NCBI GenBank assembly: GCA_017403085.1
Contig: JAFQOQ010000006.1
Span: 832-64,831 of the forward strand
Source of the DNA: Alphaproteobacteria bacterium
Lineage (GTDB): Bacteria; Pseudomonadota; Alphaproteobacteria; Rs-D84
Reading direction: 5' to 3'
DNA length: 64,000 bases
Part shown: positions 28,971-33,899 of the stretch, piece after piece
How the letters are laid out: each line of letters starts with the position of its first letter
How positions within the stretch are numbered: position 1 is the first letter of the stretch
The notes under the pieces: model-generated
The model's input: the letters and a program-made list of their open reading frames with translations, nothing else
What the model was told of the DNA's origin: nothing
Databases searched by the model: none
Program-made: the position numbers and the translations under genes

Positions 28971-29705
28971 TTACCGGATTGTTGTGGCGACAATATTGTT
29001 TGCGCATTCAATGCAAGATTTTTTTAATTCTTGAAATTGATTGTATGTGTCGCGGTATAATTTTGACTGCATTACATCTGGTGTCAATTGTTGTTTAGAA
29101 AATACGGCGACGCCATTAAATTTAAAGTATTTGCACAGGGCGCGCTGAAAGTCAGGTGTAAATTTCTGCTCGAAATATTTTTTTCCATTTATTCTGATTA
29201 CAGAATTAGCATCAGTCCTGTTTGAAAAGGATGCGATGTTCTGTATAGAATAATTGTAAAAGTTCGAAAAATACATGTGTTGGACATCTTTGAAGTACTT
29301 AAATCCATCCAAGATTGCAGATAGTATTGCAGACGTTGATGTTTCGTTCGGCGCCAAATGCTGGGCAGAATATGCAGAAACCTCGTCCAGGCAGCGTAAT
29401 CCGATATATTCATAAATGTTATGGCTGTGCAATAACGGGTCGCCGACAGATGCGTAATTTTGCGCATGATGTTTTTCGTGGCGTAATATGATTGGTTCAA
29501 GTTCTGCTAGTTTTTTGATTTTAGTTATCGCGATATCGTCTGCGGGCAGACGTAAATGCAAATCAGCGGATAATTTGTATTTGTATATTGTAATCGTGTT
29601 GTCATCAGGGTGAAAACGACCACGGATGCCACGCAACATTCTGAACGCGTCAATGTTGCTGTGATTGATAACAATATCTTTATAAATTATTTTGACCTTT
29701 TGCAT
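28971..29705 (-). CDS. hypothetical protein with HExxH motif
   Basis: 244 aa with no signal peptide. ILRHEKHHAQNY contains H-E-K-H-H. Its own TTGACA-16 nt-TATAAC promoter-like sequence lies upstream. Confidence 0.6.
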   Translation of the reverse strand: MQKVKIIYKDIVINHSNIDAFRMLRGIRGRFHPDDNTITIYKYKLSADLHLRLPADDIAITKIKKLAELEPIILRHEKHHAQNYASVGDPLLHSHNIYEYIGLRCLDEVSAYSAQHLAPNETSTSAILSAILDGFKYFKDVQHMYFSNFYNYSIQNIASFSNRTDANSVIRINGKKYFEQKFTPDFQRALCKYFKFNGVAVFSKQQLTPDVMQSKLYRDTYNQFQELKKSCIECANNIVATTIR

Positions 29706-29910
29706 AGTGTGCGACCTTTTTGAGCAAGTTATAGCACAAAGCTAATATTTGTCAATAAGATTGGTTATTTTTATTTGGGCGGTCGGATTTATTTTGCAAA
29801 AATTTTTACATATTTTTTACACAGGAATTTTGGGGTGTTGTCAATAGTTTGAGGTAAAATGGGGGTGGGGTGTTATTTGTTATAGTCTATAAAAAGTTTC
29901 TTGAACCCCA

Positions 29911-32900: not shown

Positions 32901-32970
32901 TTATATGTATGTTCGCCAGGCATGGTGTTATCAAAAACAGGGATAATAATGTCAGGGCTATTTTTTTCAT
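29911..32970 (-). CDS. 1019-aa membrane protein: signal peptide, Cys-rich exodomain, Gly/Ala-zipper TM region, long C-terminal region ending in an HExxH motif
   Basis: ATG at 32970 gives MKKIALTLLSLFLITPCLA. There are ~30 Cys in the first 430 aa. The TM region reads LIAGGAIAGVVITVATFGGFAATAAAAGAVATGTATAA. LSHENNHFHDEH lies about 70 aa from the C-terminus (around 30100-30126). The start overlaps the upstream stop as ATGA. Confidence 0.8.
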   Translation of the reverse strand: MKKIALTLLSLFLITPCLANIHINPSTVESVVKEFVPADKVVSVISEYNNQLKQSNGTGISAQKLWNICAIAGWDIKKPNGKSQCQKFVNALVKKSSIKFYHACAKENKGKAGYICVDDFFTNKIYGGTQVNLTPGQTLAREYARLKHNDSTVQCKNKFDPGTLDDTLMCTSHNQNAYYEFVFDDLEEPKDQIIKNSIQNAICRMYDAKPTTAGCAGGGTNVSGTATCWDASCAADSAKCAKINQSMAKFGYIAEYKNGKCEINFNTVTKQEDLKTAYGIDNFVFCHGIQVANAPNVETYLKQYVAERAGVSASSVKCESGFNTYTGTGCARNGITDFKDDIKTCRVGNNQIDFVFNDINEKIEKTVEGGVQGMSCIVTGGTYSGERCIGLGEQQCNILRQSNLKECPECRAAKWDPDTESCVLPSSADAQNLQKGVNITLIAGGAIAGVVITVATFGGFAATAAAAGAVATGTATAAQTTAIVFTSLETIGGVIELNQQYKINGIADDFLVESNKCKNATCAKKMLAENLQRMANLQNDMTAAEADAVDTEMARLANLIPDDDEIWATMLVNGTDMADNKAGFWESWEPEQVWRAVGIGLQLASLITGITKWAISKSSRIAKSTAAIKQKFARAIQSIDNAPESTLRAKQLALKQRLERDALQKRIAQGKIVHNADDILLQIPKTRLAAEVATSEGKLTGLTGKTKYGVVNMLDDWMTKNGSSVIVQYDKNMKAVYTAGIQDNAMPGIEQWLRTNRVPYSKNGNYIRIMETDLENVGGFVRSADDPIITKIVNTLDDDAYMRAVDNAIAPNMDDKTAERAMEKAAADIMQQREYVSKVFKDAIDPHALQEYASRTKQQYLHIIATDEDLALDALRFDELSTAQKQEFANKIIRKYNAGVCDGGTCQMNTNITTQLRRNQVAGDQRNGIIRISEDTAANGLDDFMDTLSHENNHFHDEHAAGFLNYEQARLASNTAGDFTTDIDVYNMNLTEHASSVIGRTVGTNFTSDLINLIERLYQ

Positions 32971-33899
32971 TTCAATACCCCCGTACATTTTTCGGCAACA
33001 CTTGCCACTTTTTTTATCGCACTAATTTGTGTCGCATTGAATACGGTTGCCGTGGCGGATGCCGCGGTTGTTGCACCCGCCAACACATTTGACGCAGTAT
33101 TCAGATTCTTTTCTTTTTGCTTGCCGGATTCTGTATTATCGTTGCGTGTTTTGTCCGTATTTGCCATTGCGGATGTAATTGTTCCGGCCAATCCAGTCGC
33201 AGCACCAACGGTTGATGAAATCGTTGCACCCCGACCGCGATTATTTATCTTGGACACATCAATATATTCGTATTCGCCACAGGCGGATGCGATAGACTCG
33301 GCCTCGGACACGTCTTCACCATTTATACGTGCCTGCATGATGGAATTTTGCAGGTTTTTGACATTGCTAATACAATTGTCTATTTGCGTTTTCAGGTCGC
33401 CATCTACTTTGTTCGTGCCGGCAATAATTGCGCCGGCCACATTGGTTGCGGTTGCGCCCGCCATTAAACCAGTACGCCAGTTGCCCAGTTTTTTAGATTG
33501 TTTGGTTAATTTATTTAACTCGGCCTGTGCGCCATCAATATCTTTGATTGCAATGTCATAGGATTGTTCAAACTCTGCAAGAAATGCCAGTTGTTCGGCA
33601 TCTGTGGGATAGATTGCGTTTTTCTCTAATTCTTCCAGTTCTTTGATAAGTTTTTCTAATTCTTCGGCTTGATTGTCCTTGGACTGTTTTACGAACCCCG
33701 TGACCGTTGCACCAACACCGGCCGCCGTTCCAACAGATGTAATTGCGGTGTTTATACCGGCCATTGTTTTCAAGTCACTCAATTCATCATCAATTCCCAC
33801 GCATGCTGTGTATGTGGCGCGCAACGCATCATCCAACGGTAATATATTTGCCGATGCCACAAATGGGAAAATTATAAAAAACAGGGTAATATATTGCAT
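32967..33899 (-). CDS. secreted coiled-coil protein with four Gly/Ala/Thr-zipper segments
   Basis: 310 aa with the signal MQYITLFFIIFPFVASA. Recurrent segments are GINTAITSVGTAAGVGATVTG, GLMAGATATNVAGAIIAG, SSTVGAATGLAGTITSA and NVLAGATTAASATATV. There is a 4-nt ATGA overlap with the next gene. Confidence 0.75.
   Translation of the reverse strand: MQYITLFFIIFPFVASANILPLDDALRATYTACVGIDDELSDLKTMAGINTAITSVGTAAGVGATVTGFVKQSKDNQAEELEKLIKELEELEKNAIYPTDAEQLAFLAEFEQSYDIAIKDIDGAQAELNKLTKQSKKLGNWRTGLMAGATATNVAGAIIAGTNKVDGDLKTQIDNCISNVKNLQNSIMQARINGEDVSEAESIASACGEYEYIDVSKINNRGRGATISSTVGAATGLAGTITSAMANTDKTRNDNTESGKQKEKNLNTASNVLAGATTAASATATVFNATQISAIKKVASVAEKCTGVLK

Follow-up and report, generated by a model that had tools for sequence, protein, structure and literature searches.

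Polymorphic toxin systems, of which CdiA, Rhs, MafB and the LXG-type proteins are examples, were reportedly described by Zhang, Iyer and Aravind in 2012. In BlaR1, the protease lies among transmembrane helices, and BlaR1, MecR1 and DjlA are not known to swap their output domains between strains. Exported alarmone synthetases act as toxins when in the cytoplasm, and they occur as fusions to a wide range of export domains, among them a Sec signal alone, LXG/WXG, XopAD, MuF, DUF4157 and Rhs/PAAR (PMC12691689). The bacteria of Rs-D84 and Enterousia are widespread, uncultured inhabitants of the gut with genomes below 1 Mb, in which most biosynthesis is missing; they are predicted to depend on partner cells and are thought to live off other cells, and their interaction with those cells is unexplained (PMC12306168). 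Here we report the analysis of a 64,000-nucleotide stretch of DNA (contig JAFQOQ010000006.1 of GenBank assembly GCA_017403085.1; hereafter referred to as the window) from a gut alphaproteobacterium of Candidatus Enterousia, order Rs-D84, with a genome of less than 1 Mb. The window contains a two-gene operon, p310–BIG, in which the membrane protein BIG joins a conserved N-terminal scaffold to a C-terminal cassette that is exchanged between strains by recombination and that, in this allele, resembles a zinc metallopeptidase, an anatomy that we tentatively read as that of a polymorphic effector. A sequence-only reading of the window had taken p310, BIG and a third gene, p244, together as one candidate toxin module.

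Exchange of the C-terminal cassette

29911..32970, minus strand: BIG gene, an open reading frame of 1019 amino acids
32967..33899, minus strand: p310 gene, an open reading frame of 310 amino acids
29827..30945, minus strand: exchanged cassette, BIG residues ~676–1019 plus 84 nucleotides of 3′ flank, delimited by blastn, G+C content and identity bins

BIG comprises a conserved scaffold (residues 1 to ~675) and an exchangeable cassette (residues ~676 to 1019). When BIG is compared with its near relatives in bins of 50 residues, the identity is 84–100% up to about residue 650 and 10–30% thereafter. The locus L062 (P0005) displays the reverse pattern, being 97.6% identical to the window at the nucleotide level across 29827..30945 as against 86.5% across the upstream operon (blastn), and the tract that it has in common with the window ends 84 nucleotides past the BIG stop codon. 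In addition, the G+C content of the cassette is 0.360, compared with 0.445 for the remainder of the BIG gene. The higher identity to L062 in the tail than upstream of it therefore marks the tail as an exchanged, low-G+C cassette, and constitutes direct evidence of recombinational exchange. The sequence-only reading had likened the cluster to polymorphic toxins and inferred a candidate effector or toxin module, and this part of its proposal is supported by the build of BIG, in which a constant N-terminal scaffold is followed by a sharply bounded, laterally exchanged C-terminal cassette.

In L062, genes for a serine recombinase/resolvase, DUF2924 proteins, a KAP NTPase and a Fic protein (1215..2215 and 6418..13552 of that locus) bracket the operon. 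This arrangement suggests that the L062 operon or its surroundings lie in or next to a mobile element, a possible vehicle of cassette exchange.

Zincin-like module of the window allele

29914..30513, minus strand: zincin-like module, BIG residues 820–1019, assigned from the A3 profile and the modelled order of secondary structure
30109..30123, minus strand: HENNH, residues 950–954, with H950, E951 and H954 unchanged throughout the family
29995..29997, minus strand: E992, an invariant Glu 38 residues past H954 and a candidate third metal ligand

The sequence-only reading had drawn attention to one HExxH motif in BIG and another in p244, with the caution that so short a motif could occur by chance. 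Both motifs are present (LSHENNHFHDEH from BIG residue 948 and ILRHEKHHAQNY from p244 residue 73), and the numbers expected from composition are 0.008 in BIG and 0.015 in p244. Among 26 diverse tails with ~20% pairwise identity, H950, E951, H954 and E992 are the only invariant residues, and Y986 is nearly so. The BIG motif is thus conserved in orthologues, along with a downstream Glu, to an extent beyond chance, whereas the invariance of the p244 motif says little, since the only six clusters known are all at least 68% identical.

The zincin-like type is the commonest among the BIG tails, accounting for ~60 of the 87 BIG clusters in an iterative profile search. Many members of the family have H-E-x-G-G-H, with one residue inserted between the two His residues, and the family has two further motifs of its own, N-P-x-G-A-L-G and Y-x5-E-Q-S-x-[WY]. 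With the A3 profile, which represents this type, a search at E ≤ 0.001 of a library 1.84 billion in size recovered 1644 representative proteins; among the best 142 new matches, 59 carry the BIG scaffold and the others are proteins of 160–560 amino acids. Standalone proteins of this module mostly have no evident N-terminal signal sequence, as judged by eye, and often begin '...YEKYAPKNITLEQF'. One such homologue sits alone among housekeeping genes.

Members of the family that were scanned singly gave weak Pfam matches, nearly all of them to zincin families: the most frequent were DUF6782 (5 of 26; best E = 3e-5), SprT-like (4) and YgjP-like (2), together with single weak matches to Tox-MPTase2, M48 and MPTase-PolyVal. 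Moreover, a relative, P0336, matches DUF6782 at 50.9 bits (cut-off, 27 bits) on a domain that is also matched by the BIG-tail profile. In the AlphaFold2 model of the window protein, a backing helix is followed by a β-hairpin (residues 923–932), the HExxH helix (residues 941–957) and a further helix (residues 990–1003) that starts at about E992, a predicted order of helices and strands compatible with a minimal gluzincin. We have filed BIG residues 820–1019 as zincin-like, that is, as a probable divergent zincin-like domain with a remote link to the DUF6782 and SprT-like metallopeptidases, in which E992 may serve as the third metal ligand. The best match of the module profile in the PDB was deuterolysin (E = 0.37); profile searches of the PDB with this module, with p310, with p244 and with the entire family yielded noise or matches at E ≥ 0.02, the only exception being the alarmone-synthetase type.

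A helix-plus-hairpin unit, '(T)D.EW..LN..L...G[IV].L...', recurs in many tails, sometimes in tandem, and gives weak TraI_middle matches; it was seen in the tails of P0082, P0083, P0086 and P0087, as well as at residues 709–775 of the window protein, where the α/β mid-domain looks like two such units.

Other cassette types and downstream genes

Several BIG alleles carry tails of other kinds. The alarmone-synthetase-like tails (P0018, P0032, P0040 and P0052) match PDB 8vx3 over ~190 residues, nearly the whole length (E = 4.8e-11), and match Tas1 weakly. The 8vx3 chain is named 'SaSAS' by its depositors; we presume that it is SaEAS, an alarmone synthetase exported by Streptomyces albidoflavus. 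In two divergent loci of this type, BIG is followed by homologous genes of 78–81 amino acids and by a gene for an HD_4 hydrolase (of the alarmone-hydrolase type) of 180 amino acids. By the logic of PMC12691689, antidote genes mark those alarmone synthetases that fold in the cytoplasm of the producer before they are exported. The sequence-only reading had associated small partner genes with toxins; these sister alleles combine a toxin-type domain with immunity-like genes downstream, and they alone have a cognate downstream immunity-like gene that co-varies with the tail, whereas most zincin-type loci have none. Among strains that carry the same tail as the window allele, the gene after BIG differs.

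Downstream of zincin-type BIG genes, three loci have helical open reading frames of 100–116 amino acids (L015, 13083..13427; L026, 13171..13476; L036, 3334..3684), which overlap BIG or lie at most 13 nucleotides from it and have similar N termini ('MII..N..F.YI'); the window contains no equivalent. For some alleles, these genes may thus encode an antidote or a chaperone. In one subclade (L011, L012, L046 and L049), a tRNA-Ser(CGA) gene lies on the opposite strand 45–110 nucleotides past the BIG stop codon, and there is thus no room for a downstream partner gene.

The remaining tail types that we identified are kinase-like and J-domain tails. Kdo/WaaP kinase-like tails are present in P0064 and P0087, the latter scoring 25.7 bits against a cut-off of 21.3 bits, and J-domain tails (HPD) are present in P0059, P0062 and P0081, the P0059 group carrying, past the J-domain, one more membrane segment and then a small domain at the C terminus. 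Neither the kinase-like nor the J-domain tips are classical toxins. We also considered an ADP-ribosyltransferase for the A5 tail type (the P0043 group, 'LFHGS') and for P0084 ('GYHGT'), and set this assignment aside, as neither Pfam nor the PDB gave support for it.

The composition of the tails is unusual in one respect. BIG tails contain 0.157% Cys, as compared with 0.54% in the standalone homologues of the module and 0.60% in housekeeping proteins, an approximately four-fold depletion, and 42 of the 61 non-redundant BIG tails are free of Cys.

Scaffold of BIG and its partner protein p310

32914..32970, minus strand: BIG signal peptide, residues 1–19 (MKKIALTLLSLFLITPCLA), an N-terminal hydrophobic stretch kept in homologues
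31663..32913, minus strand: BIG ectodomain, residues 20–436, with 22 Cys residues and a mixed α/β fold modelled with a predicted local distance difference test (pLDDT) score above 90
31477..31662, minus strand: Gly/Ala-rich hydrophobic region, residues 437–498, with a strong transmembrane segment (437–468) and a weaker amphipathic segment with conserved Glu residues
31123..31476, minus strand: juxtamembrane helical region, residues 499–591, with invariant C517/C522 (CX4C), plus the marginal hydrophobic segment 592–616 (QVWRAVGIGLQLAS...)
30946..31122, minus strand: Lys/Arg-rich linker, residues 617–675, the last part conserved among alleles, with the recombination junction at its end

BIG and p310 both have signal-peptide-like N termini, as the sequence-only reading had noticed, and its figure of ~30 Cys residues for BIG was roughly right. 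BIG has 27, of which 22 lie in the mature ectodomain (residues 69–422), and further pairs are found at 517/522 and 901/906. In an alignment of 57 BIG members, the ectodomain Cys residues are mostly invariant or nearly so, and C517 and C522 are invariant. The Gly/Ala-rich transmembrane region was likewise recovered, in the form of one strong segment (residues 437–468; Kyte–Doolittle score, 2.16) and two marginal segments (residues 470–498 and 592–616). The AlphaFold2 model of BIG has a mean pLDDT of 76.5, which rises above 90 in residues 20–440 and drops below 40 in residues 443–495; residues 491–573 are modelled as helical, and helices at 606–668 and a disordered stretch at 670–707 precede the tail. 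The ectodomain has no Pfam match, a Foldseek search with the model found no relative of it at E ≤ 0.001 in the PDB or BFVD, and a profile search with it against PDB sequences returned coiled-coil noise only. The ectodomain is disulfide-rich and has no known relative in these searches.

p310 consists of a signal peptide and four Gly/Ala/Thr-rich segments with coiled-coil stretches between them. Its family comprises 2150 clusters, and Cys residues 33, 176, 207 and 305 are invariant in the family alignment. Searches of Pfam, NCBIfam and PADLOC returned nothing meaningful for p310, BIG or p244, and p310 likewise has no match in the PDB. The sequence-only reading called p310 a glycine-zipper protein; no Pfam or NCBIfam profile of the Gly-zipper families matched it, and the resemblance lies only in the small-residue-rich segments of its sequence. 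We considered and rejected the possibility that p310 is a paralogue of BIG residues 511–616: p310 residues 69–160 and the juxtamembrane region of BIG aligned with an hhalign probability of only 7%, a hint.

Conservation of the p310–BIG operon

34014..34087, plus strand: tRNA-Gln(CTG), divergent from p310 and 114 nucleotides from the p310 start

Relatives of BIG were found in metagenome-assembled genomes from animal guts, assigned to Candidatus Enterousia or to allied 'Alphaproteobacteria bacterium', and they amount to 87 protein clusters and 50 species-level genome loci. A p310-family gene lies directly upstream and overlaps the BIG start in 33 of the 41 loci with upstream sequence, and several more loci have a variant partner of ~255–330 amino acids with a common signal peptide and an 'ELEKDATYPT...FLAEF' stretch. 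The p310 proteins (54–93% identity) are better conserved than BIG (24–90%). In the window, the minus strand reads ...TTGAAATGAAAAAA, and the TGA stop codon of p310 overlaps the ATG start codon of BIG. The ATGA overlap between the two genes reported in the sequence-only reading is therefore real, and the pairing of p310 with BIG that it implied is conserved.

The operon is usually flanked by housekeeping genes, those for an AmiC-like amidase, an MGMT-like protein, peroxiredoxin, IHF/HU, AccD–AccA, CysS and RpoD, identities that were read off the translations by inspection and not by family search. In close relatives of the window, the order tRNA-Gln–p310–BIG–variable slot–CBAH is kept, and the tRNA-Gln gene occupies the same position in L003, L004, L005, L007 and L009. 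Since p310–BIG is lineage-wide, flanked by housekeeping genes and syntenic, it is core to the lineage rather than accessory, and our results show a two-gene operon that is confined to the alphaproteobacteria of Candidatus Enterousia / Rs-D84 and conserved among them. Variable presence, which the sequence-only reading had expected of the cluster, does not apply to p310 and the N terminus of BIG, which are lineage-wide; variation is confined to the tail and to the slot that precedes CBAH. The tRNA-Gln gene does adjoin the cluster, as that reading had stated, and the synteny in close relatives rules it out as an island boundary for p310–BIG.

The AT-richness ascribed to the cluster holds for a part of it, namely the 3′ third of BIG (G+C content 0.360), the spacer between BIG and p244 (0.332) and p244 (0.378), whereas p310 (0.447) and BIG residues 1–675 (0.445) lie slightly above the window mean of 0.429.

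TcpQ-like and secretin genes (L060, 1438..4000; L018, 689..3266) lie directly upstream of p310–BIG in one locus and ~6 kb upstream in another, so the lineage has a secretin-based machine. We rejected secretin/TcpQ linkage as a general feature of the operon, as the adjacency occurs in 2 loci only.

p244 and the slot before CBAH

28971..29705, minus strand: p244 gene, an open reading frame of 244 amino acids

The coordinates and strands that the sequence-only reading assigned to the three open reading frames are exact, and its grouping of them as one unit is contradicted by the distribution of p244. The p244 protein has HEKHH at residues 76–80 (window 29466..29480) and no signal peptide or hydrophobic segment, and its family consists of the six clusters mentioned above, in which HE[KY]HH is invariant. 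Homologues with 90% and 73% identity to p244 lie beside CBAH or His_Phos/PQ-loop genes with no BIG upstream. Conversely, in L062 the same BIG tail is followed by a 93-residue open reading frame, a KAP NTPase gene and recombinase genes and not by p244, and the tract shared by L062 and the window ends before p244. The spacer between BIG and p244 is AT-rich and 205 nucleotides long, and elsewhere among the close relatives this slot, bounded by BIG and CBAH, is either empty or occupied by other small genes.

The sequence-only reading had remarked that the two HExxH motifs lie in a similar context, but this likeness does not reflect homology that we could detect. The hhalign probability was 0.5%, the BIG-tail hidden Markov model missed p244 at E ≤ 10, jackhmmer searches from p244 found its own family only, and BLAST found no similarity between p244 and the BIG module. 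No Pfam, NCBIfam or PDB match was found for p244, and its model, too poor (pLDDT 54) to make a fold search meaningful, had no Foldseek match; with low confidence, the model shows, within the first 116 residues, three strands and then helices that bear the HExxH motif and a Glu. The p244 gene is a bystander that varies among strains and belongs with the genes on the CBAH side.

The conserved right-hand neighbour of the slot is CBAH itself (27814..28893, minus strand), a choloylglycine hydrolase/penicillin V acylase of 359 amino acids (E = 1.6e-62) with a signal peptide and, directly after it, the catalytic Cys. In L052, a P2-like prophage tail region (1..4052; tape measure, gpU, gpX and gpD) lies a few kilobases upstream of a p244 homologue, and temperate phages thus infect this reduced-genome lineage.

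Possible functions of BIG

The reading that we favour, though tentatively, is that BIG is a polymorphic effector scaffold whose cassette is delivered to, or acts on, another cell. The genetics of the cassette, the depletion of Cys in the tails and the partner-dependent lifestyle of the lineage together argue for a delivered effector. In the mechanism that we propose, the ectodomain and the secreted Gly-zipper protein p310 would form an envelope or contact part, and the cassette would be synthesized at the cytoplasmic face of the inner membrane, as suggested by the tails that need cytoplasmic cofactors (ATP/GTP or Hsp70) and by the antidote-like genes of the alarmone-synthetase alleles, which would need an adjacent hydrolase or antidote gene because their cassette is made there. 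The cassette would then be passed to, or act on, a partner, host or competitor cell, in which the zincin-like domain might cut a protein target with a Zn site formed by H950, H954 and E992 and with E951 as the catalytic base. Strains would swap cassettes by recombination at the junction past the Lys/Arg-rich linker. In a stricter version, which we consider unlikely, p310 and the BIG scaffold would be a new envelope device that moves cassettes into a partner or host on contact without a known secretion system.

Several observations weigh against a delivered effector, and the delivery step is its weakest link, no machinery having been identified: Pfam and NCBIfam searches found no secretion or trafficking domain on the scaffold or p310, and secretin and TcpQ genes adjoin the operon in only two loci. 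Moreover, hydropathy gives one or three membrane crossings and the segment after residue 616 is strongly Lys/Arg-rich, features that place the tail in the cytoplasm and predict that it stays in that of the producer. A core, syntenic operon is unusual for a toxin locus; most alleles, including that of the window, have no immunity-like gene, and in several loci a tRNA-Ser or opposite-strand gene directly follows BIG; no orphan cassettes were found within 10 kb of BIG; and the J-domain alleles with an extra transmembrane segment resemble resident membrane proteins. The depletion of Cys is what would be expected of polypeptides that cross an oxidizing compartment or a narrow channel, and is indirect evidence. 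As for the enzyme, the tail of the window allele has no Pfam match of its own, and the metallopeptidase fold that the sequence-only reading had proposed to look for was not recovered by structure search, Foldseek with the whole 1019-residue model returning no zincin at E ≤ 0.001 from the PDB or BFVD, which is a weak negative. Many of these points would fit the strongest competitor, which we judge less probable than a delivered effector: BIG would be a cis-acting transmembrane sensor whose Cys-rich ectodomain perceives an external cue, with p310 as a periplasmic co-factor and the cytoplasmic tail as a swappable output (a regulatory protease here; a kinase, a J-domain or an alarmone synthetase with its hydrolase elsewhere), and nothing would be delivered. 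The predicted type-I-like topology, the core operon among housekeeping genes, the scarcity of immunity genes and the resident look of the J-domain alleles are all in keeping with a sensor, as are the dependence of every identified tail type on cytoplasmic partners, the standalone zincin homologues, which mostly have no evident signal peptide and of which one lies among housekeeping genes, and the pairing of synthetase and HD_4 hydrolase, which can be read as a signalling pair. Against a sensor, the outputs are swapped among alleles with ~90% identical sensors at a sharp junction and as a low-G+C lateral cassette, which is the pattern of conflict systems, whereas signalling pathways need matched downstream partners; the alarmone-synthetase type is nearest to an exported toxic enzyme, and the BIG tails are about four-fold poorer in Cys than their standalone homologues.

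Other readings account for less of the evidence. It is improbable that BIG is a membrane-anchored abortive-infection or anti-phage system in which the ectodomain senses phage attack and triggers a self-directed cytoplasmic effector (a protease, an alarmone synthetase or a kinase). Defence systems typically pair a constant sensor with effectors that can be swapped, as is seen here with a toxSAS-like domain among them, most of the effectors have no immunity gene, and mobile-element genes flank the L062 operon; nevertheless, BIG, p310 and p244 have no PADLOC match, the operon is present in the whole lineage in a housekeeping context rather than in patchy islands, and J-domain tails are, to our knowledge, not known as defence effectors. 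We likewise attach little credence to BIG as a structural envelope protein or adhesin with a fast-drifting tail, in which HExxH...E would be a non-catalytic relic: the core gene pair, the large disulfide-rich ectodomain and the lack of a confirmed catalytic fold would agree with such a role, yet four presumed catalytic or ligand positions never vary even at ~20% identity, and the tails are unrelated folded enzyme domains that replace one another by directly evidenced exchange and do not drift. Least credible, and indeed very improbable, is a toxin module of three genes, with p244 acting either as another HExxH protease related to the BIG tail or as its cognate partner or immunity protein. BIG and p244 are neighbours on one strand, both have H-E-x-x-H after Ser or Arg, the low G+C content of the BIG cassette recurs in p244, the p244 motif is invariant in its six known clusters, and by eye the downstream L-D-E-V-S-A-Y of p244 resembles the L-T-E-Q-S-S-Y of the zincin-like family; these likenesses are outweighed by the failure of profile comparison in either direction, by the poor p244 model with no structural match, by the occurrence of p244 beside CBAH without BIG and of the L062 tail without p244, and by the spacer between the genes.

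Neighbouring genes

Beyond the tRNA-Gln gene lies a two-gene islet (34349..35928, plus strand) with a G+C content of 0.313, encoding a 115-residue protein with a C-terminal membrane segment and a 404-residue membrane protein that ends in an HNH nuclease (Pfam HNH, E = 2.8e-5; PADLOC type IV methyl-directed restriction enzyme model, 1.3e-6). No relatives of these two genes occur in the other loci retrieved, and it is this islet, not p310–BIG, that looks like an insertion beside the tRNA gene.

The window encodes other large surface or secreted proteins. A 1096-residue autotransporter with faint Chlamydia polymorphic-membrane-protein repeats (40393..43683, plus strand) is another large surface protein in a genome of less than 1 Mb. 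On the CBAH side, a 775-residue secreted protein (25393..27720, minus strand) has a Ser/Thr/Arg-rich N terminus, a coiled coil, many Cys residues, a 'C..Y..C...FC' motif and a C-terminal EGF-like Cys pattern with weak cEGF and MSP1 EGF matches. A similar Cys-rich secreted family, F15 (~414 amino acids), is found upstream of the operon in other Enterousia loci. Secreted proteins with disulfide bonds seem to be abundant in Enterousia genomes, and there is a DsbA-like gene near 25393..27720.

Comparison with known systems

Our analysis defines three unannotated families, namely the Cys-rich scaffold, p310 and the zincin-like module (at least 1644 representative clusters), and in the literature we found no description of the BIG scaffold, p310 or this zincin-like family. 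A gene pair kept by the lineage, with a tip swapped between strains that includes a relative of a toxic exported alarmone synthetase, is a testable candidate for interaction machinery. If cassettes are indeed moved into other cells on contact without a known secretion system, p310 and the BIG scaffold would constitute a delivery route of a new kind, and a principal factor in the exploitation of partner cells by these uncultured symbionts or parasites; if the tail acts in cis, BIG would be a receptor of an unusual sort, with an output domain exchangeable as a cassette.

Each part of the system has described counterparts from which it differs. Like the minimal zincins of the DUF6782, SprT-like and YgjP-like families, the BIG module has an HExxH helix after a β-hairpin and a downstream Glu-bearing helix, whereas the window sequence matches none of these families and the BIG family has HExGGH variants and motifs of its own. 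p310 shares repeated Gly/Ala/Thr segments in a secreted alphaproteobacterial protein with the Gly-zipper envelope proteins (Rick_17kDa_Anti/Gly-zipper Omp; Caulobacter CdzC/D), and differs from them in its larger size, coiled-coil spacers, four invariant Cys residues and Sec signal peptide, as well as in having no match to their profiles. BlaR1/MecR1 and DjlA, in which an extracytoplasmic sensor is joined through the membrane to a cytoplasm-facing zinc protease or J-domain, offer a functional analogy only, and we found no sequence relationship between them and BIG.

The exported alarmone synthetases SaEAS, Tas1 and Apk1 (Ahmad et al., mBio 2025, PMC12691689) are approached most closely by the sister BIG alleles, which carry a homologous SYNTH domain on an export-type N terminus, with HD_4 hydrolase genes adjoining. 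The BIG scaffold is not among the carrier domains listed above from that paper, and the window allele has a zincin-like tip instead. In contrast to polymorphic toxins, BIG has no recognized trafficking domain, general downstream immunity gene or variable presence, and no orphan cassettes nearby, and its scaffold combines a signal peptide, a membrane segment and a Cys-rich ectodomain without a known relative. What p310–BIG shares with polymorphic toxins is the constant N terminus, the sharply bounded, variable C-terminal enzyme and the lateral exchange of tips, one of which is of a known toxin kind, the alarmone synthetase, accompanied by antidote-like genes.

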